This document shows positions 1,170-20,086 of a stretch of DNA of 42,688 nucleotides, piece by piece (the first letter of the stretch is position 1; each line of letters starts with the position of its first letter). Where the stretch lies: the NCBI GenBank assembly GCA_035251235.1, contig DATFEJ010000131.1, positions 1 through 42,688 of the forward strand, read 5' to 3'. A program made the translations under genes and the position numbers. The notes beneath the pieces were generated by a model. It was not told the origin of the DNA. It saw only the letters and a list, made by a program, of their open reading frames with translations, and made no database searches. This stretch comes from Burkholderiales bacterium (GTDB taxonomy: Bacteria > Pseudomonadota > Gammaproteobacteria > Burkholderiales > SG8-39).

Positions 1170-1571
1170 TCACGCGGGCGCGGCCTCCGCGGGCGCGTAC
1201 GAGGCGATGCCGTTGCCGAACGACCAGTTCTCGCGCGCCACCTCGACGAGGTTCACCCAGACGTCCTGCGGCCGCAGGCCCACGGCCTGCGCGAGGTTGT
1301 CGGCGATGCGCCGGTAGAGCGCGCGCTTCTGCTCGAGCGAGCGGCCGGCGGTCAGCGTGATCTGCACCAGGACGATCTCGTCGCTGCGCTCGATGCCGAG
1401 GTACTCGGCGTCGTATACCAGGTCGCCGCGCGCGTGCTGCGTGATGACCTGGAAGCGGTCGCGCGCCGGCACGCCGATCGTCTCGACCAGCGCCCGGTGC
1501 ACCGCGTCACCGACGCGGCGCCGGTCCCCGGGCGTCAGGCCCTCGACGAGCGAGATGCGTACGAGCGGCAC
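1170..1571 (-). CDS. Tautomerase family protein (4-oxalocrotonate tautomerase-like, about 130 aa type)
   Basis: This is the C-terminal 133 aa of the artefactual 578-aa ORF. It reads (V/M)PLVRISLVEGLTPGD...ENWSFGNGIASY, with the Pro1-type N-terminus and NWSFG motif typical of this family. The start is GTG at 1569-1571, preceded by AGGA. Confidence 0.8.
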   Translation of the reverse strand: MPLVRISLVEGLTPGDRRRVGDAVHRALVETIGVPARDRFQVITQHARGDLVYDAEYLGIERSDEIVLVQITLTAGRSLEQKRALYRRIADNLAQAVGLRPQDVWVNLVEVARENWSFGNGIASYAPAEAAPA

Positions 1572-1723
1572 GCGTCCTGCGTCCCGGTCCGGCGGCCGAG
1601 CAGCGCCTGCGCCGAGCGGGCGAGGAACGCCTGCACGGCGAGGGCGCGCTCGCGATGCGCGTCGCGCTCCAGCTGCGCGCGCAGCTCGTCGTCGCGCAGG
1701 TAGCCAGCGTATTGCAGATCCAT
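1535..1723 (-). CDS. Hypothetical small protein (62 aa)
   Basis: A strong SD (AAGGAGAG) lies 5-6 nt upstream of the ATG, and the ORF begins 18 nt after the DUF2917 stop. The N-terminal 40 aa look helical and protein-like. The 3' end overlaps the tautomerase start by 37 nt. I recognise no family. Confidence 0.4.
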   Translation of the reverse strand: MDLQYAGYLRDDELRAQLERDAHRERALAVQAFLARSAQALLGRRTGTQDACRSYASRSSRA

Positions 1724-1741
1724 GGCGGCTCTCCTTGCGGG

Positions 1742-1969
1742 TCAGGCGAGCGCCACGGTGGCGTCGCCGAAAGCGTGCACCAGGGCGAGGCCCTTGCGGC
1801 TGAGGCGGTAGCTCGCCCCGGCCTCGAGCACCACGTCCTTGTTCATGTTCTCCTCGGTGATCCACACGCTGCCTTGGTCGCAGCGGATGGTGCTGCCCAG
1901 GGCGTCCACCACCCTGAGCGTCTGCCCGCGCGCGAGGCGCAGGGCGCCGGGTTCCAGTTCGATGCGCAT
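1742..1969 (-). CDS. DUF2917 domain-containing protein
   Basis: The tail of ORF 1742..2251 reads MRIELEPGALRLARGQTLRVVDALGSTIRCDQGSVWITEENMNKDVVLEAGASY, matching the short DUF2917 pattern (G.vWvT....D..L..G). The ATG at 1969 has AGGAG 6 nt upstream. The gene is divergent from a LysR gene, as is common for this family. Confidence 0.75.
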   Translation of the reverse strand: MRIELEPGALRLARGQTLRVVDALGSTIRCDQGSVWITEENMNKDVVLEAGASYRLSRKGLALVHAFGDATVALA

Positions 1970-1997
1970 GACCATCTCCTGTCGGGTTGCGTTTGGC

Positions 1998-2012
1998 ATG
2001 CGCATGGTGCAT
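1998..2012. promoter_or_regulatory. Candidate LysR-type T-N11-A box (ATGC-N7-GCAT)
   Basis: The dyad atgcGCATGGTgcat lies in the 85-nt divergent region between the LysR gene and the DUF2917 operon. Confidence 0.3.
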
Positions 2013-2054
2013 CCTGCCCGTCGCGCTCTCAAACGGTAAGAATTCAGGCTTTGC

Positions 2055-3005
2055 ATGAACAATGGGAATGTAAGGCTGCCGTCCCTGGACCTGCTGCGCG
2101 GCTTCGAGGCCTCGGCGCGGCTGCTGTCGTTCACGCGCGCCGGCGAGGAGCTGCACCTCACGCAGTCCGCGGTCAGCCGGCAGATGCAGGAGCTCGAGGA
2201 GCAGCTCGGCGTGAAGCTGTTCGAGCGCCGCCATCGGGCGCTCGCGCTCACCGACGCCGGCCAGCAGTTCTATCCGGCCGCGGCGCAGGTGCTGGCGACC
2301 ATGCGCGCGGCCACCGACCGGCTGCGCGCGCAATCCGGCCGGCGCGCGCTCGCCGTGACCACCACGCACTCCTTCGCCGCGCTGTGGCTCATCCCGCGCC
2401 TCGCGGGCTTCACGCGCGCCCACCCCGGCGTCGACGTGCGCATCTCCGCCGACACGCGCGTGCAGGACCTGGAGCGCGACGGCCTCGACGTGGCGATCCG
2501 CCACGGACCGGCGAGCCTCGCCGGGCCGGGCGCCGAGCGCCTGTTCGGCGAGCGCGTCTTCCCGGTGTGCAGCCCGAAGCTGGCGCGCGATGCGCGCCGC
2601 CCGCTCAAGGAGCCCGCCGACCTGCGCCACCACGTGCTGCTGCAGTACGACGATCCGGATGCGCGCCATCCTTGGCTGCACTGGCGCTCGTGGCTCGAGG
2701 TGGAGCGCCTGGCGGAGTTGAAGCCCGCGGGGCGCCTGTCCTTCTCCGGCTACGAGCAGATCATCGCCGCCGCGATCGCCGGGCACGGCGTGGCGCTCGG
2801 CCGCAGTCCGCTCCTGAAGGACGCGCTCGAAGCGGGGGACCTCGTGGCGCCGTTCAAGCGCAGCGCCGACCCGGCGCGCGCCTACTACGCGATCGCGTCG
2901 AGCCACGCGCAGGGCCGGCCGGAAGTGGCCGCGTTCGTCGCCTGGCTGAAGCGCGAGGCGGCCGGCGCGGAGGCTAGCGCAGCGCCGCGGAAGAAACGCG
3001 CCTGA
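2055..3005 (+). CDS. LysR family transcriptional regulator (GcvA-like)
   Basis: The N-terminal wHTH reads LPSLDLLRGFEASARLLSFTRAGEELHLTQSAVSRQMQELEEQLGVKLFERR. A LysR substrate-binding domain follows. Confidence 0.92.
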   Translation: MNNGNVRLPSLDLLRGFEASARLLSFTRAGEELHLTQSAVSRQMQELEEQLGVKLFERRHRALALTDAGQQFYPAAAQVLATMRAATDRLRAQSGRRALAVTTTHSFAALWLIPRLAGFTRAHPGVDVRISADTRVQDLERDGLDVAIRHGPASLAGPGAERLFGERVFPVCSPKLARDARRPLKEPADLRHHVLLQYDDPDARHPWLHWRSWLEVERLAELKPAGRLSFSGYEQIIAAAIAGHGVALGRSPLLKDALEAGDLVAPFKRSADPARAYYAIASSHAQGRPEVAAFVAWLKREAAGAEASAAPRKKRA

Positions 3006-3597: not shown

Positions 3598-3602
3598 GTA
3601 TG

Positions 3603-4580
3603 TCAGAGCGTGAGGACGATCTTGCCGATGTGCGCGCTCGACTCCATCAGCCGGTGCGCCTCGGCGGCCTGCTCGAGCGGGAAGGTCCGGTAGATCACCG
3701 GCCTGATCTTGCCGGCGTCGATCAGCGGCCAGATGCGGCTGCGCAAGCTCGCGGCAATCGCGCCCTTGAACTCGATCGGACGCGGGCGCAGCGTCGAGCC
3801 GGTGAGGGTGAGGCGGCGGCGCATCAGCTCGTTCACGTCGAGCTCGGCCTTGGGTCCGCGCAGGAAGGCGATGAACACCAGGCGTCCGTCGTCGGCGAGC
3901 GCCTTCAGTTCCTTCGGCACGAAGTCGCCTGCCGCCATGTCGAGGATCACGTCCACGCCCTTGCCGCCGGTGGCCGACCGCACGCCCGCGACGAAGTCCT
4001 CGGTCTTGTAGTTGAAGGCCGCCTCGGCGCCGAGCTGCAAGCAGGCGGCGCACTTCTCGTCCGTGCCGGCGGTGGCGAAAACGCGGTTGCCGGTGGCCTT
4101 CGCCATCTGGATGGCGGTGACGCCGATGCCCGAAGTGCCGCCCTGCACGAGCAGCGCTTCGCCCGGGGCGAGGCGGGCGCGATCATAGACATTGGACCAG
4201 ACGGTGAAGAAGGTCTCGGGGAGCGAAGCGGCCTCCACCATGGAAAGGCCCCTGGGCACCGGCAGCGCCTGCACTTCCGGCGTCACGCAGAACTCCGCGT
4301 AGCCGCCGCCATGCGTGAGCGCGCACACCGCATCGCCCGGCTTCCACATCGTTACCGCAGCGCCGCATGCGACGACCTCGCCGGCGACCTCCAGGCCGGG
4401 CAGGTCCGAGGCGTCGGGCGGCACGGCGTAAAGGCCCATGCGCTGCAGCACGTCGGGGCGGTTGACGCCCGCCGCCGCCACCTTGACGAGGATCTCGTGG
4501 GTTTTGGGCACCGGGCGCGGGCGCTCCGCGGGACGCAGCGCCTCGGGCCCGCCGGGCTTGTCGATCTGGATGGCGCGCAT
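3603..4580 (-). CDS. qor: NAD(P)H:quinone oxidoreductase (zeta-crystallin/PIG3 MDR family)
   Basis: MRAIQIDKPGGPEAL...GVNRPDVLQRMGLY...GGTSGIGVTAIQMAK...GKIVLTL. I chose the start at ATG 4580; ATG 4592 is also possible. Confidence 0.88.
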   Translation of the reverse strand: MRAIQIDKPGGPEALRPAERPRPVPKTHEILVKVAAAGVNRPDVLQRMGLYAVPPDASDLPGLEVAGEVVACGAAVTMWKPGDAVCALTHGGGYAEFCVTPEVQALPVPRGLSMVEAASLPETFFTVWSNVYDRARLAPGEALLVQGGTSGIGVTAIQMAKATGNRVFATAGTDEKCAACLQLGAEAAFNYKTEDFVAGVRSATGGKGVDVILDMAAGDFVPKELKALADDGRLVFIAFLRGPKAELDVNELMRRRLTLTGSTLRPRPIEFKGAIAASLRSRIWPLIDAGKIRPVIYRTFPLEQAAEAHRLMESSAHIGKIVLTL

Positions 4581-4617
4581 GAAGGCGCGCATCTTAACGC
4601 AAGCGCCACGGCACATT

Positions 4618-6543
4618 ATGATGCTCGCCTCCATGCCGCGCGTTTTCGCATTCCTGGCCGTGCTTATCTTCGCGTCCGCGGCGCACGCGCGAGAGACGGC
4701 GCCGCTGCCGAGCGAACGCGGCTTCACTTCGCTCGGCGCCTACGTCGAGGTGCTGGAGGATCCGTCGCGCGCCCTGCGGCTGGAGGACGTGCGCGCGCCC
4801 GGGCACACGGAGCGATTCTCGCGCCCGGGCACCGATCCGCTCAATTTCGGCTACTCGCGCTCGGCGTGGTGGCTGCGCTTCCGGCTGCCGGGCGGCGCAC
4901 CCGCCGGCGAGGAATTGCTGCTCGAGGTGGCGTTCCCGAGCATCGACCGCATCGAGCTGCACCGGCCCGAGGCGCAGCCGGGCGGCGAGGCGCGCTACTG
5001 GGCGCGCCTGGCGGGGGACACGTTTCCCTGGGACGCGCGCGAGGTGCGCCACCGCAACTACGTATTCCGCTTTCCGGCGCCGACCGCCGCCGGCGATCAC
5101 GAGTATTACCTGCGCGTGGAATCGAAAAGCGTGGTGACCGTGCCGCTCACGCTCTGGCGCCCGGAAGCCTTCGCGGAACAGGGGCGCAGCTCGCAGCTGG
5201 TGCTCGGGCTGTTCTACGGCCTGGCGCTCGCGCTCATCCTCTACAACCTGATGCTGTTCGTCGCCGTGCGCGACGGCGTCTACGCCTACTACGTGGCGTA
5301 CGCCGTGGCGTTCGGGCTGTTCCTGTTCAGCTACGACGGGCTGGCGTACCAGTACCTGTGGCCGAACAGCGTCTGGGCGGCCAATCACGCGGTGGCGATG
5401 ACGCTGTGCCTGACGCTCGCCCTGGGCGTGCTGTTCGCGCGCGGCTTTCTCGCCACGCGGCGCGTGGCGCCGCGGGCCGACCTCGCCCTGCGCGCCATCG
5501 CCGCCACCGGCGGCACGTTGGCCCTGTTCGCCGCCACGGGCTGGGTGCTCGACTACGGCACCGTGCTGCGCATCATCTCCGTGCTCGGCTTCGCGGCCGC
5601 GGCGCTCGCCACCTACGTCGCGGTGCGCGCGCTGGTCGCGGGATACCGCCCGGCGCGCTACTTCCTGCTCGCCTGGTCGGCGCTGCTGGTGTTCATCGGC
5701 GTCGGCGCGCTGCGCAATTTCGCGCTGGTGCCGACGACTTTCGTGACCATCTACGGCCTGCACATCGGCTTCGCCCTGGACGTGCTGCTGCTGTCCTTCG
5801 CGCTCGGCGACCGCATCGGCATCCTGCGGCGCGAGCGTGCGGTGGCCCAGGCCGAGGCCCTGCAAGCGCAGCGTCGGCTGCTCGAGGCGACGCGCGAGAG
5901 CGAGCGCGAGCTCGAGCTGCGCATCGCCGAGCGCACGGCGGAGCTGAATCGCGCCAACGAGCGGCTGCGCGCCGAGGCGGGCGAGCGCGAAGGGCTGATG
6001 GCGCTGCTGCGCAACCAGGAGGAGCACCTGCGCTTCATGGCGCAGCACGACCCGCTGACCGGCCTGCCCAACCGGCTGTCGATGCAGCAGCGGCTGGCGC
6101 TCGCCATGGAGCTGGCCAAGCGCAACCGCAAGAAGCTGGCGGTGATGCTGGTCGACCTCGACGGCTTCAAGTCCATCAACGACACGCGCGGCCACCCGGC
6201 CGGCGACCAGGCGCTGGTGCAGCTCGCCTCGCGCCTGCGCACCAGCGTGCGCGGCTCGGACACCGTGGCGCGCTACGGCGGCGACGAGTTCGTCATCCTC
6301 GCCGGCGAGCTCGATCGCACCGAGGACGCCTCGATGATCGCCGAGAAGGTCGCCGACATGGTGCAGCTGCCGCTCGCGCTCGCCGGCGGGCCGACGAGCG
6401 TGTCCTGCTCCATCGGCATCAGCGTCTTTCCGGACGACGCCGAGGACGCCGAAACGCTCATCGCGCTCGCCGACAAGGCGATGTACGCGTCCCGCTCGGC
6501 GAGCGGGCAGCGCTTCGCGTTCTTCGCGCGGGCCGAGCCCTAG
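4618..6543 (+). CDS. Diguanylate cyclase with 7TMR-DISMED2 periplasmic domain, 7TMR-DISM membrane module, coiled coil and GGDEF domain
   Basis: A signal/TM segment is followed by ...NFGYSRSAWWLRFRL... (DISMED2), then seven hydrophobic helices. The GGDEF domain carries an intact RYGGDEF and an RGSD (RxxD) I-site 5 residues upstream. The start is ATG 4618 or 4633. Confidence 0.88.
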   Translation: MMLASMPRVFAFLAVLIFASAAHARETAPLPSERGFTSLGAYVEVLEDPSRALRLEDVRAPGHTERFSRPGTDPLNFGYSRSAWWLRFRLPGGAPAGEELLLEVAFPSIDRIELHRPEAQPGGEARYWARLAGDTFPWDAREVRHRNYVFRFPAPTAAGDHEYYLRVESKSVVTVPLTLWRPEAFAEQGRSSQLVLGLFYGLALALILYNLMLFVAVRDGVYAYYVAYAVAFGLFLFSYDGLAYQYLWPNSVWAANHAVAMTLCLTLALGVLFARGFLATRRVAPRADLALRAIAATGGTLALFAATGWVLDYGTVLRIISVLGFAAAALATYVAVRALVAGYRPARYFLLAWSALLVFIGVGALRNFALVPTTFVTIYGLHIGFALDVLLLSFALGDRIGILRRERAVAQAEALQAQRRLLEATRESERELELRIAERTAELNRANERLRAEAGEREGLMALLRNQEEHLRFMAQHDPLTGLPNRLSMQQRLALAMELAKRNRKKLAVMLVDLDGFKSINDTRGHPAGDQALVQLASRLRTSVRGSDTVARYGGDEFVILAGELDRTEDASMIAEKVADMVQLPLALAGGPTSVSCSIGISVFPDDAEDAETLIALADKAMYASRSASGQRFAFFARAEP

Positions 6544-8186
6544 AAGCTGGACTTCGATTCCATCGTCAGCTGGTACGAGTCCAACCCGGGCTCGCGTCTG
6601 AGGGGGAAGGCGATGTCCAGGTGCAGCGTGGTGCCGGTCGCGGAGCGCGCGCTGAGCAGCCGCAGCCCGAAGCCGACGTTCGCGGACCAGTGCGCGTCCG
6701 GGAAATTCTGGTAAGGCTCGCCCCAGGCCCGGCCCACGTCGTAGAAGACGGCGCCGCCGACGCGGATCAGCCGCAGCGGATACCAGTCGCTGTACAGGCG
6801 CTGCTCGGCGGTCAGCAGCACCCGCCGGCTGCCCAGCTGGTAATTGGAGGGATAGCCGCGCAGGCCGGTATCGCCGCCGAGAGACAGGTACTGCGTGGCG
6901 TCCGAGAACTCGGTCGCGTCACCGGAGAGCGCGACGTAGAGCAGCGCCCCGCTGCCGCGGCGCTGGTAGTAGCGCAGCGCACCGCCCAGCACGACGCGGT
7001 CGTTTTCGCCGTTGGCGTACTCTCCCGACACCGCCGCGGAGGCGAGCAGCGTGCGATCGCCGTGGAAGCGGAATCCTTGGCTGACGCCGGCCGCGTACCA
7101 GGTGATCAGGTCCGTGGAGCCGAGGCCGGGCGTGGAGCGCCCCACCTGCACGCTCGCCTGCAGGCCGAGCGCCTGGTATTCCGGACGCCCGATGCTTTGG
7201 ACGTTGGTGACTTCACGGAAGTCGTCCTCGACCACCTCGTAGCGCAGATACGGGCCGGCCCGCAGGCGGTCGCCCGGCAGCGTCGCCGGCGCGCGCGGGT
7301 CGTTCTCGTACCGGTCGCGCAGATAGCTCAGGCCGAGCGAGAAGCGGTTCGCCCAGCCGTTCACCAGGCCCGGCGACCATCCGCCGGAGACGTCCGCGCT
7401 TTCCGTGCTGCGGTAGAACCGCCCGGCCTCGGCGCCGCCGGCATACTGGGTGAGCAGCCGGTTGTCGGTGGCGACCGAGAAGTTGCCCGCGCCGCGCGCG
7501 TCGAGCGCGTAGAACGGGCGCGTCACGTTGAACGAGCGGCTGTCGCCGTCGTCGAAGTTCGCCTGCGCATAGGCGACGGTCGTGCGACCGTCGAACGCAT
7601 ACGGGTAGCTCACGCCGAAGTCCACGCCGCTCGGCGTTCCGCCGGCGGTGGTGACCTCCGTGGTCGAGCGTGTCGACAGGGTCAGCCGCGCGCCCGTGCC
7701 GAAGAGGTTGTACTCGCTAATGCGCGCGCCGCTGGTGGTCGTGCCCCCCGCGCTCTCGAGGCTCGCGCCGAACTGCAGGGTCCAGGAATCTCGCGTGCGC
7801 ACCTCCAGGTCGACGACGCCGTCGCGCCACGCGATCGGCCGGATGCTCGCCTGGTACAGGTAGCGGTTGCCGCGCAGCAGGCGCTCGGATTCGAGCACGC
7901 GCTGCGCGACGAGCTTCTCGCCGCTGCGGAACAGCAGCTGATTGCGGATCACGTGGGGCCGGGTCTGGATGTGGATGCCATTGGCGAGCCGGAAGAGCCA
8001 GTTGTTCTCCGCCGGATCGTCGAGGTTGAAGACGTCGTCGGCGGCGATGCGGATCTCGCCGATGACCGCGCCGGCGGCCTCCAGTTCCGCCAGGGAAGGC
8101 AGCGCGGCCGGCGTGGGCGCCTCCTCGGCGTTAACGGCGCACGCGATGAAGGCGAGCAGCGCGGCAGCGAGCGCGCGCGGGCGCAA
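6540..8186 (-). CDS. Omp85-family outer membrane protein with a single POTRA-like N-terminal domain
   Basis: The signal peptide reads MRPRALAAALLAFIACAVNA. A POTRA-like segment follows, then a beta-barrel with alternating hydrophobic pattern, the LGGDTGLRGY loop-6 motif and a C-terminal Phe. Confidence 0.8.
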   Translation of the reverse strand: MRPRALAAALLAFIACAVNAEEAPTPAALPSLAELEAAGAVIGEIRIAADDVFNLDDPAENNWLFRLANGIHIQTRPHVIRNQLLFRSGEKLVAQRVLESERLLRGNRYLYQASIRPIAWRDGVVDLEVRTRDSWTLQFGASLESAGGTTTSGARISEYNLFGTGARLTLSTRSTTEVTTAGGTPSGVDFGVSYPYAFDGRTTVAYAQANFDDGDSRSFNVTRPFYALDARGAGNFSVATDNRLLTQYAGGAEAGRFYRSTESADVSGGWSPGLVNGWANRFSLGLSYLRDRYENDPRAPATLPGDRLRAGPYLRYEVVEDDFREVTNVQSIGRPEYQALGLQASVQVGRSTPGLGSTDLITWYAAGVSQGFRFHGDRTLLASAAVSGEYANGENDRVVLGGALRYYQRRGSGALLYVALSGDATEFSDATQYLSLGGDTGLRGYPSNYQLGSRRVLLTAEQRLYSDWYPLRLIRVGGAVFYDVGRAWGEPYQNFPDAHWSANVGFGLRLLSARSATGTTLHLDIAFPLRREPGLDSYQLTMESKSSF

Positions 8187-8201
8187 CGCGCTTCCTATCC
8201 G

Positions 8202-9161
8202 CTAGCGGGCGGACAGCTGCTTCGCCGCCCAGCCGAGATCGACGTTGCCCCCGGAAATCACCACCCCGACCTTCCTGCCCTTCGCATCCAGCTTGCCCGC
8301 CAGCAGCGCGCACGCGGCCAGCGCGCCGGTGGGCTCGACCACGATCTTCATGCGCTCCCAGAGAAAGAACATCCACCGCAGGAGCTCGTCATCGGTCACC
8401 GTGAGGAAATCGCTCACGTTCTTCTGGATGATGGAGAAGGTGAGCTTGCCGAGCGACATCGTGCGCGCGCCGTCGGCGATGGTGTCCGGCAGCGGCACGC
8501 TCTCGAGCTTTCCGGAGCGGAAGGAGCGCAGGCCGTCGTCGCCCGCCGCCGGCTCCACGCCGATGACGCGGCACTGCGGCGAAAGATGCTTTGCCGCGAT
8601 GGAGCAGCCCGACAGCAGCCCGCCGCCGCCGCACGGCACCATCAGGAGGTCGAGCGGCCCCGCTTCCTCGATCAGCTCCTTCGCCGCGGTGCCCTGGCCC
8701 GCGAGGATGTGCGGGTGATCGAATGGCGGGATCACCGTGAGGCCGCGCTCGGCGGCGAGCCGCTCTGCGATCTTCTGGCGGTCCTCGTTGCTCGCGTCGT
8801 AGAGCACGACCTCGGCGCCGTAGCCGCGCGTCGCCTCCAGCTTCACCTTCGGCGCGTCGGTCGGCATGACGATGGTGGCGGGCACGCCGAGCAGCTTGCC
8901 GGAGAGCGCCACTGCCTGCGCATGGTTGCCCGAGGAGAAGGCGACGACGCCTTGCTTCTTCTGCTCGGGCGAGAGCTGCGACAGCGCGTTGTAGGCCCCG
9001 CGGAACTTGAAGGCGCCCATGCGCTGGAAGTTCTCGCACTTGAAGTGCACCCTGGCGCCGGTGAGCGCGTCGACGGTGCTCGAGGTGAGCACCGGCGTGC
9101 GCTTGGCGAACGGCTTGATGCGCTCGTGCGCAGCGGCGACGTCGGCGTAGGTCACGTCCAT
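8202..9161 (-). CDS. PLP-dependent threonine/serine dehydratase family (threo-3-hydroxyaspartate ammonia-lyase / serine racemase-like)
   Basis: It has FKCENFQRMGAFKFRGAYN (PLP lysine motif), SSGNHAQA and GGGGLLSG. I chose the start at MDVTYADV (ATG 9161). Confidence 0.88.
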   Translation of the reverse strand: MDVTYADVAAAHERIKPFAKRTPVLTSSTVDALTGARVHFKCENFQRMGAFKFRGAYNALSQLSPEQKKQGVVAFSSGNHAQAVALSGKLLGVPATIVMPTDAPKVKLEATRGYGAEVVLYDASNEDRQKIAERLAAERGLTVIPPFDHPHILAGQGTAAKELIEEAGPLDLLMVPCGGGGLLSGCSIAAKHLSPQCRVIGVEPAAGDDGLRSFRSGKLESVPLPDTIADGARTMSLGKLTFSIIQKNVSDFLTVTDDELLRWMFFLWERMKIVVEPTGALAACALLAGKLDAKGRKVGVVISGGNVDLGWAAKQLSAR

Positions 9162-9201
9162 GTCGGCACGTATGTCGGGGTGATCATGCCCGGATTGTAG
9201 A

Positions 9202-13952: not shown

Positions 13953-16658
13953 TCAACGATACTCCGGCTGCACGCGCGTCAGGTAGTCCTCGAGCTGCGC
14001 CGCCAGGCCGCTGACGGCGGCGGCATCTTCGCGCTTGGATCGCTCCTCGATGGCCTTGCCGATGCGCGTGATCTCGTCGAATCCATAGCTGCCGCCGACG
14101 CCGCTCAGCGAATGCCCGATGGCGCGCGTGGCGGAGAAGTCGCCACCGTCCAGCGCCGAGCGCAAGCGCAGTACGTCGCGCCCGCAGTTGGAAAGAAAGC
14201 GCACGGCGAGCGCGCGCAGGCGAGCGTCCACGGTGACGCGGATCGCGTTCGCGCCGGCGGCCGGCGCGGGCGGCGCGGCGCCCTCGGACAGCGGCGCCAG
14301 CAACTCGCGCAGGCGTTCCGGGGAAACGGGCTTGCTGATCACATCGTCGCAGCCCTCGATCAATGCCCGCTCGACGGGAGCCCCGGCCTGGTGCGCCGTG
14401 AAGCCGATCACCGGGCGCGTGTAGCCGCGCTCGCGCAGCACGCGCACCGTCTCGTAGCCGTCCATGAACGGCATGTCCATGTCGAGCAGCACCACGGTGT
14501 AGGGCTCGGCGAGGGCTGCCTCGATCGCCTCGAGCCCGTCGCCGACGGCCTTGCAGGCGAAGCCGATGTCCGCGAGCTGCGCCTGCACCAGGTCGCGCAG
14601 GTCGGCATTGTCGTCGGCGAGCAGCACGCGGCCGGAAAGCCTGGCGGGTGCCGGCGCGGGGGCCGGGGCGGGTGCCGCCGCGGGTGCCGGAAGCCGCGCC
14701 TCGGGGGCCGGGATGCGCACCTCGAAGCTCGAGCCCACGCCCACCTGCGAGCGCGCGTGCAGCGCGCCGCCCATCAGCTCGACCAGCCTCTTGGTAATCG
14801 ACAACCCCAGTCCCGTTCCCGCGGCCGTCACGCCGGGCGCGCGCTGGAAGGGGACGAAGATGCGCTCCAGGCTGTCGGCGGGAATGCCCGGGCCGGTGTC
14901 GCGCACTTCGCAGCGCAGCTCGCCGTCGCGCCAGGTGGCCGTCAGCGTCACCGTCCCCGCGGCCGTGAACTTGATCGCGTTGCCCAGCAGATTGATGAGC
15001 ACCTGGCGCACGCGGAACGCGTCGAGCATGAGCGCCACGGGCACCTCGGCGGCCACGTCCTGCTCCAGCGCGAGCTGCTTCTCGTGCGCCATCACCCGCA
15101 GGGTGGCCACGACGTCCTCGATCAGCGCGCGCGCCTCGTGCGGCGTGCGGTTGAACGTGAACTGGCCCGCTTCCATGCGCGCCAGATCGAGGTTGTTGTT
15201 GACCAGCGCCAGCAGGTGCTCGCAATTGCGCGCGATGATGCCGCTGTGGCGCAGGCGCTGCTCCTTGCCGATGTCGTCGCCGTACAGGTTGAACTTGTTG
15301 AACCCCATGATCGCCGTGATCGGCGTGCGCAGCTCGTGCGTCATGTGGTTGAGGAACTCGGTCTTCAGGCGCGTGGCTTCCAGGGCGGCGGCCTTCTCGT
15401 AGTGCAGGCGCTGCCTTTCCTGGTGGAGCGCGAACAGCCAGGCGGCGAGCGCCGCGGCGTATGCGCCCAGTCCCGCGACGGCCGCGAACAGCCAATGCGA
15501 CTGCTGGGCAGCCATTGCCAGGCCGAGGACGGCGCCGATCAGCACGAGCGCCAGGGCGCCCAGCCCGAGGGCGAAGTCCCGCGGCGGCGGAGCGGCGCCG
15601 CGGAACGCCAATCCTGCGGGCAGCGCGAGCGCGATCAGCACGAGCAACGCGTTTAGCCACGCCCGCGGCGGGCCCAGTACCTTGCCGGCGCGCAGGCTCT
15701 CTACGATGAGCGCGTTGACGTACAGGCCCGGCAAGCGCCCGACCGGCGTCTGCGCGAAGTCGCCGAGCACGGCGCTCGAGCTGCCGACGAGGACGATGCG
15801 ATCGCGCACCAGGTCGGCGACATGCGCGGTCCCCGCGGCGCCGTCCGCGGCATCCACGATCTGATGGAAGGGGATGACGGACAGCGCGGAGAGGTTGGCG
15901 GGAAGGCGCGGCGCGATGCTGCCGTCATCGGCCATCGGCCAGGACAGGTCGCCGGCGTGCAGGCGAGCGCCGACGATCCGCAATTGCCGGCTGGGCTCCG
16001 CCGCCAGCAGCGCCGCGACGGAAAATGCGGGCAGGACCCTGCCATAGGCAAGGTGCAGCGGCCTGACGCGCCGCACGACGCCATCGTCGTCGGCCGCCGT
16101 GCTGAAGACCGCCACGCGCGCTCCGGAGTCGCGCGTCAGTTGCGCGAGCGGCAGCGTCAGGTCGTTCCAGGCGTATGCGTGTGCGGCGACGTCCGGGGCG
16201 GCCGAAGCTTCCAGCGGCGCCACGGCGGCAAGATGCTCCAGGTACTGCCGGGATCGCACGTAGGGATACGGCAAGGCTGCGGCCGCCAGCACGCCGCGCC
16301 GGTCGAGCGCGGCGGCGAAGGCATCGTCGCCTTCGCGCGGCTCGGCGAACAGGATGTCGTAGGCGACGGCGCGCGCGCCGCTTCCTGCGAGAAAGCGGTG
16401 CGCCTTGGCATAGACGTCGCGGCCATACGGCCAGGCGCCGATTTTCGGCTGCAGATGCTGCATCGATGCTTCGTCGACGTCCACCACCACGACGCCGTCG
16501 AGCGGCAACGCGGCGGCAAGCCGCCGCTGCAGCGCATCATCGACCCACCAAGACAGGCGCGGGAAGAGATCGGAGTAAGCGAACAGGGTCGCCAGCGCCA
16601 GCCCGGCGGCGGCCACGGCCAGCACGCGCACCCAAGGCAGGTAGGAACGCGATTGCAC
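13953..16658 (-). CDS. CHASE2-domain hybrid sensor histidine kinase (CHASE2-TM-HisKA-HATPase-REC-Hpt)
   Basis: The N-terminal TM is followed by VVVVDVDEASM...WPYGRDVYA...AYDILFAEP (CHASE2), then three C-proximal TM helices. The kinase core has the H-box HELRTPITAIMGF, N-box LINLLGNAIKFT, and G-boxes DTGPGIP and GTGLGLSI. A Pro-Ala linker leads to the REC domain (VLLADDN...LLDMDMPFMDG...KP) and an Hpt domain (HSLSGVGGSYG). The start is GTG. Confidence 0.9.
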   Translation of the reverse strand: MQSRSYLPWVRVLAVAAAGLALATLFAYSDLFPRLSWWVDDALQRRLAAALPLDGVVVVDVDEASMQHLQPKIGAWPYGRDVYAKAHRFLAGSGARAVAYDILFAEPREGDDAFAAALDRRGVLAAAALPYPYVRSRQYLEHLAAVAPLEASAAPDVAAHAYAWNDLTLPLAQLTRDSGARVAVFSTAADDDGVVRRVRPLHLAYGRVLPAFSVAALLAAEPSRQLRIVGARLHAGDLSWPMADDGSIAPRLPANLSALSVIPFHQIVDAADGAAGTAHVADLVRDRIVLVGSSSAVLGDFAQTPVGRLPGLYVNALIVESLRAGKVLGPPRAWLNALLVLIALALPAGLAFRGAAPPPRDFALGLGALALVLIGAVLGLAMAAQQSHWLFAAVAGLGAYAAALAAWLFALHQERQRLHYEKAAALEATRLKTEFLNHMTHELRTPITAIMGFNKFNLYGDDIGKEQRLRHSGIIARNCEHLLALVNNNLDLARMEAGQFTFNRTPHEARALIEDVVATLRVMAHEKQLALEQDVAAEVPVALMLDAFRVRQVLINLLGNAIKFTAAGTVTLTATWRDGELRCEVRDTGPGIPADSLERIFVPFQRAPGVTAAGTGLGLSITKRLVELMGGALHARSQVGVGSSFEVRIPAPEARLPAPAAAPAPAPAPAPARLSGRVLLADDNADLRDLVQAQLADIGFACKAVGDGLEAIEAALAEPYTVVLLDMDMPFMDGYETVRVLRERGYTRPVIGFTAHQAGAPVERALIEGCDDVISKPVSPERLRELLAPLSEGAAPPAPAAGANAIRVTVDARLRALAVRFLSNCGRDVLRLRSALDGGDFSATRAIGHSLSGVGGSYGFDEITRIGKAIEERSKREDAAAVSGLAAQLEDYLTRVQPEYR

Positions 16659-16771
16659 ACTGTCCTATCGGGGCATAGTGAGCGACAATTCTAGAGGAAT
16701 TCCTCAGCGCGGCCGTCCGCCCCGGGGGCGTCGGCGATGGCTGCCCAACGGCGCCGGGATTCAACACACTC

Positions 16772-18118
16772 ATGCGCCGTCGTGCCAGAGAAGTCGTATT
16801 GTTGTTGCTCGTCGCCTTGTCGATGGCGATGAGCGGCCGCGTTGCCGCGCAGACTCCGCTCGAAGAAGTTCTCGCCAGGGCGGCCGCGCTGACTGCCGCG
16901 GGCCAGCACACCGAGGCCTACGCGCTGCTTTCCGCGGAAGAGGACACTCATATCGGCGAGATCAAGTTCGACTACGTGCTCGGGCGCGCGGCGCTTTTCG
17001 CCGGGCGCCCGGATCGGGCGACGATCGCGTTCGAGCGCGTGCTGGCGCTCGATCCGGGCCATGCCGGCGCGCGCATCGACATGGGGCGCGCGTACCTCGC
17101 GCTCGGCAACCTGGCGCAGGCGGAAGTCGCGTTCCAGGCGCTGCTCGACATGGATCCGCCGCCAGCGTTGCGCGCGCAGTTGCTCATCTACCTCGGCGAA
17201 GCACGCGCGGACCGAAAGCGCAAGGTGGCTGCCCGGGGCTACCTGAGCGTGTTTGCCGGCGCGAGCTCCAACGTCAATCAGGCGCCCGGCCAGGGACAGT
17301 TCTTCGTGCCGGGATTGCTCGCGGTGCTGCAGCTCGCTGACCAGAACATCGCCAAGGACGACACGTTCGCGGGGATCGGTGGCGGCGTCGAGGCGGCGAG
17401 GCCGCTGAGCGGACGTTACTCGCTGATCGCGGCCGCCGAGTTTCTCGCCCGCCAGAACACGCACTATTCCGACTTCGACGTGGGCGGAATCTGGGGAAGC
17501 ATGGGCATTGCGCATACGGGCGACCTGCACGTGGTGCGCGCGCAGTTGCAGCTCGTGAATGGCACGCTGGGTGGAGACACGAGCCGCAGGGTCGAGGCGG
17601 TAAGCGTCGACGTGACGGAGACGTCCGCGGCTGACGGCTCGCTGGGCTGGATGTTCGCCTTTGCGCACGCCGGCCGGACCCGGCATCCGCCGGCCGACCT
17701 GCAGATTTTCGATGCCGACTTCCTTACTGTCGGCATCGGTGCAAACCTGAAATTTGACGAGAAATCGACAGCGAGTGTCGCCTTCCTGGCGGGTGGCGAC
17801 AACGACCAGGGCGGAAATCCGAGCGGCGACCGTTTCGGGATCGGATTTCGCCTTGCAGGCGAAAGGGTTATTGCGCCTGGATGGCGATTGTTCGGCTTGC
17901 TTGGAGCGTTGAATTCGCGCTACGACGGGTTTGACCCGTCCTTCCTCGTGTATCGCGAGGACCGGCGCTGGGATCTGGAACTCATTGTTCGGCATGACCT
18001 TTCCAGGGACCTTGAACTGCGTGTCGGGGCCATACGCACGGTCCAGGATTCGAACGTCCCGATCTATGAATACACGCGGACGGACTGGTCGATCGGCCTG
18101 CGGTACCAGTTCAACTGA
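16772..18118 (+). CDS. TPR + DUF560-like 14-strand outer-membrane barrel (Slam / type XI secretion system-like outer membrane protein)
   Basis: The signal peptide is ...SGRVAA/QTP. About 130 aa of TPR repeats follow (AGQHTEAYALL..., LDPGHAGARIDMGRAYLALGNLAQAEVAFQALL). The barrel opens with GYLSVFAGASSNVNQAP and ends ...RTDWSIGLRYQFN. Length and architecture match Slam/NilB-type proteins. Confidence 0.65.
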   Translation: MRRRAREVVLLLLVALSMAMSGRVAAQTPLEEVLARAAALTAAGQHTEAYALLSAEEDTHIGEIKFDYVLGRAALFAGRPDRATIAFERVLALDPGHAGARIDMGRAYLALGNLAQAEVAFQALLDMDPPPALRAQLLIYLGEARADRKRKVAARGYLSVFAGASSNVNQAPGQGQFFVPGLLAVLQLADQNIAKDDTFAGIGGGVEAARPLSGRYSLIAAAEFLARQNTHYSDFDVGGIWGSMGIAHTGDLHVVRAQLQLVNGTLGGDTSRRVEAVSVDVTETSAADGSLGWMFAFAHAGRTRHPPADLQIFDADFLTVGIGANLKFDEKSTASVAFLAGGDNDQGGNPSGDRFGIGFRLAGERVIAPGWRLFGLLGALNSRYDGFDPSFLVYREDRRWDLELIVRHDLSRDLELRVGAIRTVQDSNVPIYEYTRTDWSIGLRYQFN

Positions 18119-18227: not shown

Positions 18228-19634
18228 ATGAGAAAAGGTCTCATCTTTCTAGGTCTGGTGGTCGGTGCCGCGGGCGCTGGCCAAGCGCTTGCGCAAACCG
18301 CGGGCGTCATCCAGTTCGCTGCTGGCGCGGTCAAGGTCGTGGCGCCTGGCGGCGCCGAGCGCGAGGCCCGCAAGGGCGTGGCGGTCAACGTGGGCGATAC
18401 CCTGACGACGCCCGCCGGCGGCCTTGCCCAACTGAAAATGGGCGACGGCGCGATCGTCGTCGTGCAGCCCGAGTCCCGCCTGACCGTGGCCGAGTTCCAC
18501 TATGCCGGCGTCGAAGACGGCAACGAGAAGGTGCGCTATCGCCTCGAGCATGGCGGCTTCCGCGCGGTGACCGGCGCCATCGGCCGCACCCACAAGAAGA
18601 ACTACCTGATCGAAACGCCGATCGCCCACATGGGCGTGCGCGGCACCGACCACGAGTCCTATTACTTCCCGGCCACCGGGCCGGTGAGCGGCGATGGCGT
18701 GAAGCCCGGCGCCTTCAACAAGGTGAACACTGGCAGGACCTACCTGCGCACGCAAGCGGGCGAAGTCGAGATCGAGCCGAACCAGGTGGGCTTCGTCGCC
18801 AGCGCCGGCGAGGTGCCCACGATCCTGCCGAGCGTCCCGGAGTTCTTCAATCGCTCCATCGCCCCGCGCAACGCGGGTCGCTCGCCGAAGCACATCCCGG
18901 ATGCTGCCGAATTGGCGCTCGTGGAGCGGGCGCCCGATGAAAGTTTGGCCAACGAGGTTCGGCTTCTTCGCACGCGTGGACCGAGAGTCACGCCAGGAAG
19001 CGGAGAAGGCCCGCTGGTCGCTTTCTCGAAGCAGGTGGGGAAAGATGGGGGCTTCGGCGAATCCGGCAATGGCGTGACGGTTGAAGTGCACGACGCGCAG
19101 TCGACCACGGGCAGCTTCGGAACCGCCATCAACTGGACGACCTGGTCCGGCGGAGAGGTGAAAGTCGGCGGTGTGAAGACGGCCGGTGCGACGCAGGTCA
19201 TCTCGACGACGGACAAGACGGACCTCCTCGCGGCACTGCCGGCGCTCCCCGTCAGCGCGACGTATTCGTACAGCGGCGTCGGTCCGGCTCCGACCAACCA
19301 GGCGGGCACGTCGGGCGTGATCAATTCGCTGAACGTGGGCGTCAGTTTCAGTACCCAGAAGATCACCAGCTACGACCTCAACGCAACGGCTGGCGGAACC
19401 ACCTGGAATTCGAGCTTGAACACCACGGCCCCGCACTCGATCACGAATTTCACCGATGCTGGGGGGATCCGCTTGACCGGGACCTGCACCACGTGTGGGG
19501 GCACGACCGCCGGTACCGCGCACGGCACCTTCGTTGGCTCGCAGGCGGAGAACCTGATCACCACTTTCGGCTTGAGCGGCTCTGCAAGCCAGTCTCTGAA
19601 CGGAGCGGCGGTCCTCAGCCGCCCGCTGCCGTAA
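18228..19634 (+). CDS. Secreted FecR-domain protein with C-terminal TbpB-like (Slam/T11SS cargo-type) beta-barrel domain
   Basis: GGAGG lies 4 nt upstream of the ATG. The Sec signal ends ...AGQALA/QTAG and has no lipobox Cys. The FecR domain spans aa 26-145 (VKVV..G..R.A.KG..VNVGDTLTTPAGGLAQLKMGDGAIVVVQPESRL...IETPIAHMGVRGTDH). The C-terminus spans aa 296-466 (W..W...ALPVSATYSYSGVG...INSLNVGVSFSTQKITSYDL...GTAHGTFVGSQAENLITTFGLSG...LNGAAVLSR). Confidence 0.7.
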   Translation: MRKGLIFLGLVVGAAGAGQALAQTAGVIQFAAGAVKVVAPGGAEREARKGVAVNVGDTLTTPAGGLAQLKMGDGAIVVVQPESRLTVAEFHYAGVEDGNEKVRYRLEHGGFRAVTGAIGRTHKKNYLIETPIAHMGVRGTDHESYYFPATGPVSGDGVKPGAFNKVNTGRTYLRTQAGEVEIEPNQVGFVASAGEVPTILPSVPEFFNRSIAPRNAGRSPKHIPDAAELALVERAPDESLANEVRLLRTRGPRVTPGSGEGPLVAFSKQVGKDGGFGESGNGVTVEVHDAQSTTGSFGTAINWTTWSGGEVKVGGVKTAGATQVISTTDKTDLLAALPALPVSATYSYSGVGPAPTNQAGTSGVINSLNVGVSFSTQKITSYDLNATAGGTTWNSSLNTTAPHSITNFTDAGGIRLTGTCTTCGGTTAGTAHGTFVGSQAENLITTFGLSGSASQSLNGAAVLSRPLP

Positions 19635-19645
19635 GACGCAACCCC

Positions 19646-20086
19646 GTGGCCGCCACCCCAGACCGCCGCAACGTCCTGATCGTCGACGATCACGAGCCGA
19701 CGCGGCTCCTGATCGGCCGCATCGTGACGCAGGAAATGGGCGCGCGTGTCATGCTGGCCGGCACCTGCGAGGAGGCGCTGCACCTCGCGCTGCAGACGAA
19801 GTACGACATCATCCTGCTCGACCTGCTCATGCCCGGCATCGGCGGATATGAGGTGCTGCGGCGCCTGCGCGCCGAGGGCGCCAACCGCGCGACGCCGATC
19901 CTGGTCGTGTCGGTGATGTCGGACCATGACTCGATCGAGCGCTGCCGGCTGCTCGGCGCGACGGCCTTCGTCGCCAAGCCGGTGGACCGCGAGCTGGTGA
20001 CGACCATGCTGCGCAGCCTGCTCGCGCCCAAGCACGCGGACGCGCAGCCGGCGAAACGTACCGACCTGCGGGACAACGGCAACTAG
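19646..20086 (+). CDS. Single-domain response regulator (CheY-like receiver, no output domain)
   Basis: NVLIVDDHEPTRLL...DIILLDLLMPGIGG...PILVVSVMSD...AFVAKP gives a full receiver with acidic pocket, phospho-Asp, Ser/Thr and Lys. I chose the GTG start 11 nt after the upstream stop; it has no clear SD. Confidence 0.8.
   Translation: MAATPDRRNVLIVDDHEPTRLLIGRIVTQEMGARVMLAGTCEEALHLALQTKYDIILLDLLMPGIGGYEVLRRLRAEGANRATPILVVSVMSDHDSIERCRLLGATAFVAKPVDRELVTTMLRSLLAPKHADAQPAKRTDLRDNGN

Follow-up and report, generated by a model that had tools for sequence, protein, structure and literature searches.

In host-associated bacteria, from which type 11 secretion is known, the system exports proteins for nutrient capture and immune evasion, and TbpB, LbpB, fHbp and hemophilin are established cargo of Slam, or type 11 secretion system (T11SS), proteins. 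Here we describe a gene from a Burkholderiales bacterium (SG8-39) that lies at 18228-19634 on the plus strand of a 42,688-nucleotide stretch (GCA_035251235.1, contig DATFEJ010000131.1, positions 1-42,688 of the forward strand; hereafter the window). Its product, which we call the cargo, carries a FecR-like domain at the N-terminus and a C-terminal domain that resembles the established T11SS cargo in structure, and the gene is accompanied by genes for a Slam-type outer-membrane protein (OMP), a CHASE2 hybrid sensor histidine kinase and a stand-alone receiver. We propose that the protein is a non-lipidated Slam/T11SS cargo that is functionally tied to CHASE2 signalling, a reading to which we assign a probability of roughly 0.55.

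Described Slam/T11SS cargo consist of a handle and an eight-stranded barrel and share little sequence similarity with one another (PMC5449769, PMC12282271), and the Slam proteins themselves combine TPR repeats with a 14-stranded barrel (PMC5449769). A survey of T11SS cargo distinguishes about ten architectures, none with FecR (PMC12282271); in its supplement FecR appears only as a Pfam family that co-occurs in gene neighbourhoods and not as a cargo architecture. Earlier T11SS papers, PMC5449769 included, mention neither FecR fusions nor CHASE2 nor histidine kinases. The author of an earlier note on this DNA knew of no described T11SS cargo with a FecR N-domain, which agrees with this literature, in which we found none published.

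FecR domains have been described next to CHASE2 proteins in other settings. In Burkholderia, a LysM-FecR protein is encoded in a CHASE2 kinase operon that controls biofilm ('BiofilmReg', PA4035-like, COG4254; PMC5192318), and a gene cluster of Campylobacterota comprises a CHASE2 cyclase, a FecR 'outer membrane protein' together with a TPR protein (PMC9239204). In S. meliloti, the sensing of an external protein by CHASE2 cyclases depends on the outer-membrane barrel protein NsrA (PMC7529298, PMC13001267), and a neighbour of cyaD1 carries a FecR domain (PMC7529298, PMC13001267, PMC5498481). Together, this literature supports a FecR-CHASE2 axis. In LapA, the retention module adopts its fold on the periplasmic side and keeps the adhesin anchored in its pore (PMC10990149).

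Domain organization of the cargo

The cargo open reading frame (ORF) translates into 468 amino acids (aa) followed by a TAA stop, and a sequence resembling a ribosome-binding site, GGTGGAGG, lies just 5' of the ATG. A search of 5.8 billion proteins yielded 319 homologues. The best 120 of these are mostly ~460 aa long with a few shorter fragments, contain Pfam FecR in all but one case, belong to Betaproteobacteria or Burkholderiales metagenome bins, and are named at most 'FecR domain-containing protein'. With 319 homologues of common architecture, a chance ORF of high-GC DNA was ruled out. The structure was modelled with AlphaFold2 on an alignment of 38 sequences.

The N-terminus, MRKGLIFLGLVVGAAGAGQALA/QTAG, shows by eye the n-h-c layout and the A-x-A site of signal peptidase I substrates, so that a Sec signal peptide of aa 1-22 (18228-18293, plus strand) with cleavage at ALA/QT is predicted; the model has a helix at aa 5-21. 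Since the first cysteine of the cargo is residue 420, the protein cannot have a lipobox. Two of the 38 aligned homologues, P0043 and P0111, have a leader cysteine (at positions 11 and 12), and neither was read as a lipobox. The non-lipoprotein signal peptide described in the earlier note is therefore borne out.

The signal peptide is followed by a FecR-like beta-sandwich that forms the most conserved part of the cargo (aa 24-207; 18297-18848, plus strand). The Pfam FecR match covers aa 57-142 and scores 31.1 bits (cutoff 24; E=3.3e-7), the beta-sandwich occupies aa 24-190 in the model, and the conserved fold block extends over ~aa 24-207. The FecR-type domain of the earlier note is thus present, and the extent given there, aa 26-145, was too short. 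The NCBIfam model NF033682 (retention_LapA) reaches 26.3 bits on the cargo (E=6.8e-6), below its cutoff of 50 bits; this sub-threshold match covers aa 24-96 (18297-18515). The same model matches 46 of 54 diverse relatives (best E=6e-9), and the NCBIfam models of Leptospira Lsa33 and LipL45 match 47 and 40 of the 54, respectively, all below the curated cutoffs. A type 1 secretion system (T1SS) context for a LapA-type retention module was not found at the cargo locus, where no LapG or LapD genes were seen, and Pfam found no LysM domain in the cargo.

Within the FecR-like domain, the most invariant stretch of the whole cargo, GAIGRTHKKNYLIETPIAHMGVRGT (aa 116-140; 18573-18647), has a predicted local distance difference test (pLDDT) score below 50, and the invariant segment THKKNYLIETPIAHMGVRGTDHE is likewise poorly modelled in the monomer. 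Judged from the model, aa 116-140 may be an interface that becomes ordered only on binding of a partner.

A disordered linker of variable length connects the two folded parts (aa 208-262; 18849-19013, plus strand), with pLDDT <50 over aa 208-251. Its length is 46-81 aa in close homologues and has a median of 119 aa across 89 representatives of the wider family. The linker of about 150 aa that had been claimed is too long, because it took in the handle and the last part of the FecR fold; the actual disordered stretch is ~55 aa.

In the C-terminal ~200 aa of the model (pLDDT ~90), the strands of a handle (aa 263-327) are followed by a short helix and then by eight further strands (aa 343-464). 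We accordingly divide this part into a beta-rich handle, or pedestal (aa 263-340; 19014-19247, plus strand), and an eight-stranded TbpB/hemophilin-like barrel (aa 341-465; 19248-19622, plus strand), after which only the residues PLP and the stop codon follow. In a Foldseek search of the cargo model against the PDB, the best match was TbpB (4o3w_B, E=1.2e-6, probability 1.0), and further matches included Vibrio HphA (8gm3_A), the TbpB C-lobe (5kkx), the LbpB N-lobe (4u9c), fHbp (8bk2), the NHBA barrel (6cuj, with a target TM-score of 0.55) as well as A. baumannii hemophilin (7re4). All of the top 37 matches were TbpB-, LbpB-, hemophilin-, fHbp- or NHBA-like. On the basis of the model, the assignment of a handle plus eight-stranded barrel fold is well supported. 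At the sequence level, Pfam and NCBIfam gave no match in the C-terminal half of the cargo, phmmer against the PDB returned only a chance-level match to a carbohydrate-binding module, and the Pfam family TbpB_B_D was weakly matched in 3 of the 54 diverse relatives (best E=0.0017). Because sequence methods are blind on the cargo itself, the link to TbpB rests on structure together with the weak matches in relatives, and homology of the modelled C-terminal domain to TbpB-type cargo is likely but unproven.

The strand pattern that the earlier note read in the C-terminal segment is present and conserved across the 38 homologues, in which G429, A431, G433, F435, V436, G437, A440, F447, G448 and G459 are invariant. 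The final strand ends in G-A-A-x-L-x-R, which we take to resemble the C-termini of TbpB and fHbp. The only two cysteines of the cargo form the CTTC motif noticed before (C420 and C423; 19485-19496, plus strand), in a hairpin turn of the barrel: in the model C420 is at a strand end and C423 in the next hairpin turn, the pair is kept in 35 of the 38 homologues, and the two residues probably form a disulfide. As a whole, the proposed chimera of a FecR domain and a TbpB-type barrel stands, with Pfam FecR above threshold and the modelled C-terminal fold similar to TbpB-type barrels by Foldseek, while profile similarity to TbpB was not found.

The upstream gene encodes a Slam-type outer-membrane protein

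The gene upstream of the cargo gene (16772-18118, plus strand), which ends 109 nt before the cargo start, encodes a Slam/T11SS-type OMP of 448 aa with a signal peptide, TPR repeats at aa 30-146 and a 14-stranded barrel at aa 153-447. The repeats are recognized by Pfam TPR_16 and TPR_19 (E ~1e-11) and modelled as helices, and DSSP counts exactly 14 strands across aa 153-447 of the AlphaFold2 model (pLDDT 84). Foldseek matches of the OMP model in the PDB are generic barrels (BcsC, porins, OmpG, CymA), the best TM-scores belonging to the 14-stranded OmpG and CymA, and no Slam structure is among the best matches.

P0224 and P0227, 47-49% identical to the window OMP, pass the threshold of Pfam SlipAM/DUF560 (PF04575), and the profile of the window OMP family aligns over its full length with the OMPs of three distant loci, L014 (E=9e-108), L017 (1e-100) and L015 (7e-41), which score 31-39 bits over the entire SlipAM model against a cutoff of 22. 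Since it is homologous over its full length to SlipAM-positive OMPs, we conclude from these alignments that the window OMP belongs, as a divergent representative, to the T11SS OMP family. The long loop that joins the first two barrel strands (aa 165-191; 17264-17344; pLDDT <50) carries an invariant S-x-N-V-N-x-x-P ... P motif; in the model it might serve as a plug or make contact with the cargo.

A CHASE2 kinase and a receiver complete a conserved module

The gene on the other side of the OMP gene, divergent from it (13953-16658, minus strand), encodes a hybrid sensor histidine kinase of 901 aa. It consists of a periplasmic CHASE2 domain (Pfam E=3.6e-39), HisKA (7e-13), HATPase_c (6e-28), a receiver (Response_reg, 3e-22) and Hpt (2e-8). 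The 113-bp intergenic region (16659-16771) separates the kinase gene from the OMP, cargo and receiver genes and presumably holds the promoters; a scan of this region for the sigma-70 consensus gave nothing, and a promoter and terminator scan of the four-gene module gave nothing usable. On the 3' side of the cargo gene lies a stand-alone receiver of 146 aa (19646-20086, plus strand; Pfam Response_reg E=1e-22), whose likely GTG start, placed from the DNA and the starts of homologue alignments, is 11 nt past the cargo stop.

Each of the nine related genome loci has the kinase, OMP and cargo genes in this order, and the receiver follows the cargo gene directly in six of them (L002-L006 and L009; tblastn); in the other three the available sequence stops less than ~750 bases past the cargo match or inside it. 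Neither an extracytoplasmic function (ECF) sigma factor nor a TonB-dependent transducer was found among the neighbours of the cargo gene, which are the kinase, OMP and receiver genes instead. A putatively secreted FecR-domain protein is thus found beside a CHASE2 signalling protein, a kinase, in the window and in 9/9 related loci, and beside a CHASE2 cyclase in L015 (see below). The only dedicated response regulator of the module is a bare receiver, and the kinase has its own receiver and Hpt. As the stand-alone receiver has no output domain, the final output of the relay lies outside the module.

A variable C-terminal cassette on a constant base

Conservation is distributed unevenly along the cargo. 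Among close homologues the mean pairwise identity is 0.82 for the FecR-like domain, 0.52 for the linker, 0.45 for the handle and 0.56 for the whole barrel (aa 341-465); of the folded parts, the handle varies most. Within the barrel, strands 1-5 (aa 341-424) have a value of 0.53 and the last three strands (aa 425-465) one of 0.64. Compared with the window, the nine related loci have mean identities of 0.79 for the FecR-like domain, 0.76 for the TPR part of the OMP and 0.78 for the catalytic core of the kinase, and 0.59, 0.55 and 0.45 for the OMP barrel, the cargo barrel and the cargo handle, respectively.

Individual homologues combine halves of different relatedness (region 18297-19622; proteins P0020, P0002 and P0026; locus L002). 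P0020 shares 99% of its residues with the cargo over aa 24-207, yet identity drops to 38% in the linker and is 50% after it; for P0002 the values are 83% at the N-terminus and 89% in the linker and C-terminus. At L002, kinase, OMP and receiver are 79-96% identical to those of the window, and the cargo handle and barrel are 44-51% identical. Because the identities of the N- and C-terminal halves are uncorrelated across homologues (r=0.10) and P0020 and P0002 are mosaics, the comparison points to the exchange of a linker-handle-barrel cassette on a constant FecR base. Such an exchange would fit an outward-facing specificity domain mounted on an inward-facing conserved domain.

The cargo family is broad

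A profile of the handle and barrel, searched against 1.84 billion representative proteins, recovered 431 clusters at 50% identity (E<=0.001), of which the best 149 were analysed; 99 of these look complete. The fusion of FecR and barrel that the earlier note described is the rule in this set, as 95 of the 99 complete representatives carrying the C-terminal module have a FecR-like start, and a gene for a SlipAM OMP usually lies directly upstream. In most complete representatives the FecR-like domain comes almost directly after a Sec-type signal peptide, and a subgroup has an N-terminal extension of 100-200 aa ahead of it; in P0326, P0335, P0378 and P0330 the extension measures 130-220 aa and has weak LysM-like matches. 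Such matches were found in 5 of the 54 diverse relatives, and these extensions hint, at the level of sequence, that the family may be linked to the LysM-FecR (COG4254) proteins that partner CHASE2 kinases. The C-terminal module occurs in one to eight tandem copies, in proteins of up to 2735 aa, and between the end of the last copy and the C-terminus the median distance is 1 aa. Up to eight tandem handle-barrel modules were seen in the giants P0254 (2735 aa), P0250 (2412 aa), P0248 and P0252; the P0254 gene (L011) has a SlipAM OMP gene directly upstream, and a FecR-like N-terminus was not found in P0250. Long linkers with much Pro, Thr and Ala are frequent in the family, for example at L010 and L012, where they exceed 100 aa.

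The context of distant members was surveyed at about a dozen loci that were not chosen systematically. A gene for a homologous OMP lies directly upstream of the cargo gene in L011, L014, L015, L017, L021 and L022 (SlipAM-positive in five of the six), and distant OMP-cargo pairs include gaps of 12 nt. At L013 (3192-6911; P0342, 1239 aa), a Slam-type TPR and barrel OMP is fused in frame to three cargo modules, which by sequence may be a genuine fusion or else the product of a frameshift or of an assembly join. The next gene after this ORF is HbpS-like. Tandem FecR-module paralogues were found at L010 (3-1619 and 1842-4004), L012 (3-908 and 1128-2600) and L022 (3617-5260 and 5325-5453). At L015, a gene for a CHASE2 guanylate/adenylate cyclase takes the place of the kinase gene and comes after the OMP-cargo pair. 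The OMP and cargo genes are flanked by genes for cyclic-nucleotide-binding proteins at L015 (6112-7275 and 11863-14076) and at L022 (1007-2056). The arrangement at L015 suggests a cAMP/cGMP version of the module.

Two further ORFs of the window lie apart from the module. The ORF at 3600-9200 (plus strand; 1866 aa) has no Pfam match, is overlapped by several long minus-strand ORFs and is probably a spurious high-GC ORF. The ORF at 1170-2906 (minus strand; 578 aa) has tautomerase domains only at residues 447-564, and its mechanical start is probably far upstream of the real start.

Discussion

Here we have placed the cargo in a four-gene module, and we go beyond the earlier note in showing its kinase context, how broad the family is and that the cassette is mosaic. 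The CHASE2 kinase context in particular, absent from that note, is what makes the locus interesting. The reading as T11SS cargo gains support because the upstream gene encodes a Slam-family OMP with TPR repeats and a 14-stranded barrel. Under this reading, the cargo would be exported by Sec and cut by signal peptidase I after ALA. The neighbouring TPR and 14-stranded barrel OMP would then recognize the handle and the eight-stranded barrel and bring them into or across the outer membrane; the last strands, the best conserved of the barrel, may lie within the region recognized by the OMP. The FecR-like domain would contact the cell's own machinery, namely the periplasmic CHASE2 domain of the hybrid kinase, the TPR domain of the OMP, or both, and whatever happens at the C-terminal cassette, which is variable and swappable, would be passed on to the kinase, from there to Hpt, and then to the stand-alone receiver. 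We infer secretion, topology, the FecR-CHASE2 contact and the signal sensed from the folds and the gene neighbourhood.

For the topology, we prefer an arrangement in which the folded FecR-like domain would stay in the periplasm as a plug or tether while the disordered linker threads the pore. Periplasmic retention is favoured because of the conservation pattern and because of the retention_LapA matches in 46 of the 54 relatives. Our more specific proposal is that of an envelope-spanning receptor, in which a surface-exposed TbpB-like cassette would be tethered through the pore to a FecR plug that switches a CHASE2 kinase or cyclase; we offer it tentatively and consider it possible rather than probable.

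Several observations weigh against the reading as a cargo tied to CHASE2 signalling. TM-scores of the whole cargo model to single-lobe cargo are only 0.35-0.55. Pfam TbpB_B_D (PF01298) has no match on the cargo at E<=1, and a 21-sequence profile of the C-terminal domain searched against PDB sequences gave chance matches to polyketide synthases and no TbpB. The window OMP itself has no match to Pfam SlipAM/DUF560, whose threshold is passed by only 3 of 42 close members of its family, and 16 of the 42 match BBP2_2. The retention_LapA scores fall short of the model cutoff (26 versus 50 bits), and characterised T11SS cargo are moved across the membrane whole, contrary to a retained periplasmic N-terminus. 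Finally, of four distant loci that have several kb on both flanks, just one has a CHASE2 gene next to the pair, and L014, L017 and L021 have none within the flank examined. The OMP-cargo pair is the constant core of the system, and the CHASE2 link is recurrent but not universal.

The main competitor shares the secretion step and differs in the fate of the N-terminus: the whole cargo would be secreted or released at the surface with FecR as an external effector or adhesin domain, and the kinase and receiver would regulate its expression or be unrelated to it. This would follow the example of TbpB and hemophilin, which are exported whole with N-terminal effector domains (PMC12282271), and would accommodate the resemblance of the FecR-like domain to the 'surface adhesin Lsa33' (as the NCBIfam model matching 47 of the 54 relatives is named), the giants, which with up to eight modules look like surface fibres, and the several distant OMP-cargo pairs that have no adjacent CHASE2 gene. 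An exposed N-terminal effector, however, would be expected to vary more than the rest, and the opposite is observed: the N-terminal domain is the most conserved part, at ~0.8 similar to the kinase core, and the C-terminus is variable. The CHASE2 link also recurs with two kinds of output domain as well as in the literature, and characterised FecR domains act in the periplasm. We therefore regard complete secretion as rather unlikely, although it is the rival to be taken most seriously.

Secretion is dispensed with altogether if the cargo is a purely periplasmic co-sensor whose barrel binds a ligand and whose OMP neighbour serves as a ligand channel or as an outer-membrane scaffold. FecR partners of CHASE2 without a Slam-type OMP do exist, as in the LysM-FecR operon (PMC5192318), the window OMP is divergent and below the SlipAM cutoff, and small eight-stranded barrels can be soluble ligand binders. 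On the other hand, the OMP-cargo pairing is tight even across very distant members, with 12-nt gaps and an in-frame fusion. The module is always found at the extreme C-terminus with its final strands conserved, as for a targeting domain; its best structural matches are Slam cargo and not periplasmic binding proteins, and up to eight tandem modules with linkers of more than 100 aa rich in Pro and Thr would suit an extended surface structure. A periplasmic co-sensor is, in our judgement, quite improbable. The Pfam FecR match above threshold might also suggest a classical anti-sigma regulator. With residue 24 as its first position, the FecR-like domain directly follows a cleavable signal peptide, which leaves neither a cytoplasmic anti-sigma domain nor a transmembrane helix ahead of it; an ECF sigma factor and a TonB-dependent receptor are absent from the conserved neighbours, whose products are a kinase, an OMP and a receiver. 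On these grounds this assignment was rejected, with next to no weight left to it.

If the proposal of an envelope-spanning receptor is true, type 11 secretion would gain a signalling role and CHASE2 would get a protein partner instead of a small-molecule ligand. The logic of a pore plus a barrel is found here in free-living Burkholderiales and in many other Proteobacteria, fused to a signalling domain, and the pair is wired to a two-component or a cyclic-nucleotide sensor. This arrangement suggests that T11SS is used here for signalling across the cell envelope. To our knowledge, what CHASE2 senses has been an open question since the domain was defined, and a conserved, encoded partner with an outward-facing, fast-evolving cassette would make that question directly testable. 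The reading also provides a working description for at least 431 clusters labelled only 'FecR domain-containing protein' or 'hypothetical'.

Among described secreted proteins, close counterparts of the cargo are the hemophilin and HphA hemophores, which likewise have a Sec signal peptide without a lipobox, a handle and a C-terminal eight-stranded barrel, and a gene beside that of a TPR-DUF560 OMP. Unlike hemophilin, the cargo has an N-terminal FecR-like domain and a disordered linker, not just a haem-binding handle; CHASE2 kinase and receiver genes adjoin it, the conserved module contains no genes for haem uptake or TonB receptors, and it has no sequence-level match to the hemophilin or TbpB families. 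With TbpB, LbpB and fHbp of Neisseria it shares the handle, the eight-stranded barrel and a variable, recombining part that faces the ligand in those proteins, and their partners Slam1 and Slam2 have the TPR repeats and 14-stranded barrel of the window OMP (PMC5449769), which remains below the SlipAM threshold. In contrast to these lipoproteins of host-restricted pathogens, the cargo is a non-lipoprotein of environmental Burkholderiales, and its conservation gradient is the opposite of theirs, with a conserved N-terminus and a variable C-terminus. LapA offers a likeness in layout, in that a beta-rich domain at the N-terminus precedes a long extracellular portion and export runs through a pore in the outer membrane, although retention would be hypothetical here and the route would be Sec and T11SS rather than T1SS.

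On the signalling side, the BiofilmReg operon, likewise of Betaproteobacteria, resembles the module in that the gene for a secreted FecR-domain protein adjoins those for a CHASE2 kinase and a response regulator; it differs in that it has no Slam-type OMP and no TbpB-like domain has been described there, and the cargo in turn has no LysM. The Campylobacterota cluster, likened here by its description, contains the same three kinds of partner, and L015 has the cyclase version; its TPR protein has not been called a T11SS OMP, nor its FecR protein a TbpB-like cargo (PMC9239204). NsrA is ~1200 aa long and may be unrelated. In the FecA-FecR-FecI system, a periplasmic FecR domain stands between an outer-membrane barrel and an inner-membrane output and relays an outside event inward, as proposed for the cargo. 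The anti-sigma domain, the transmembrane helix, the ECF sigma factor and the TonB-dependent transducer of that system are missing here; the outer-membrane partner is instead a Slam-type protein and the inner-membrane partner a CHASE2 kinase. By analogy, then, the fold and its secretion pairing would work like hemophilin with its T11SS OMP, and the signalling logic would resemble that of FecA and FecR.

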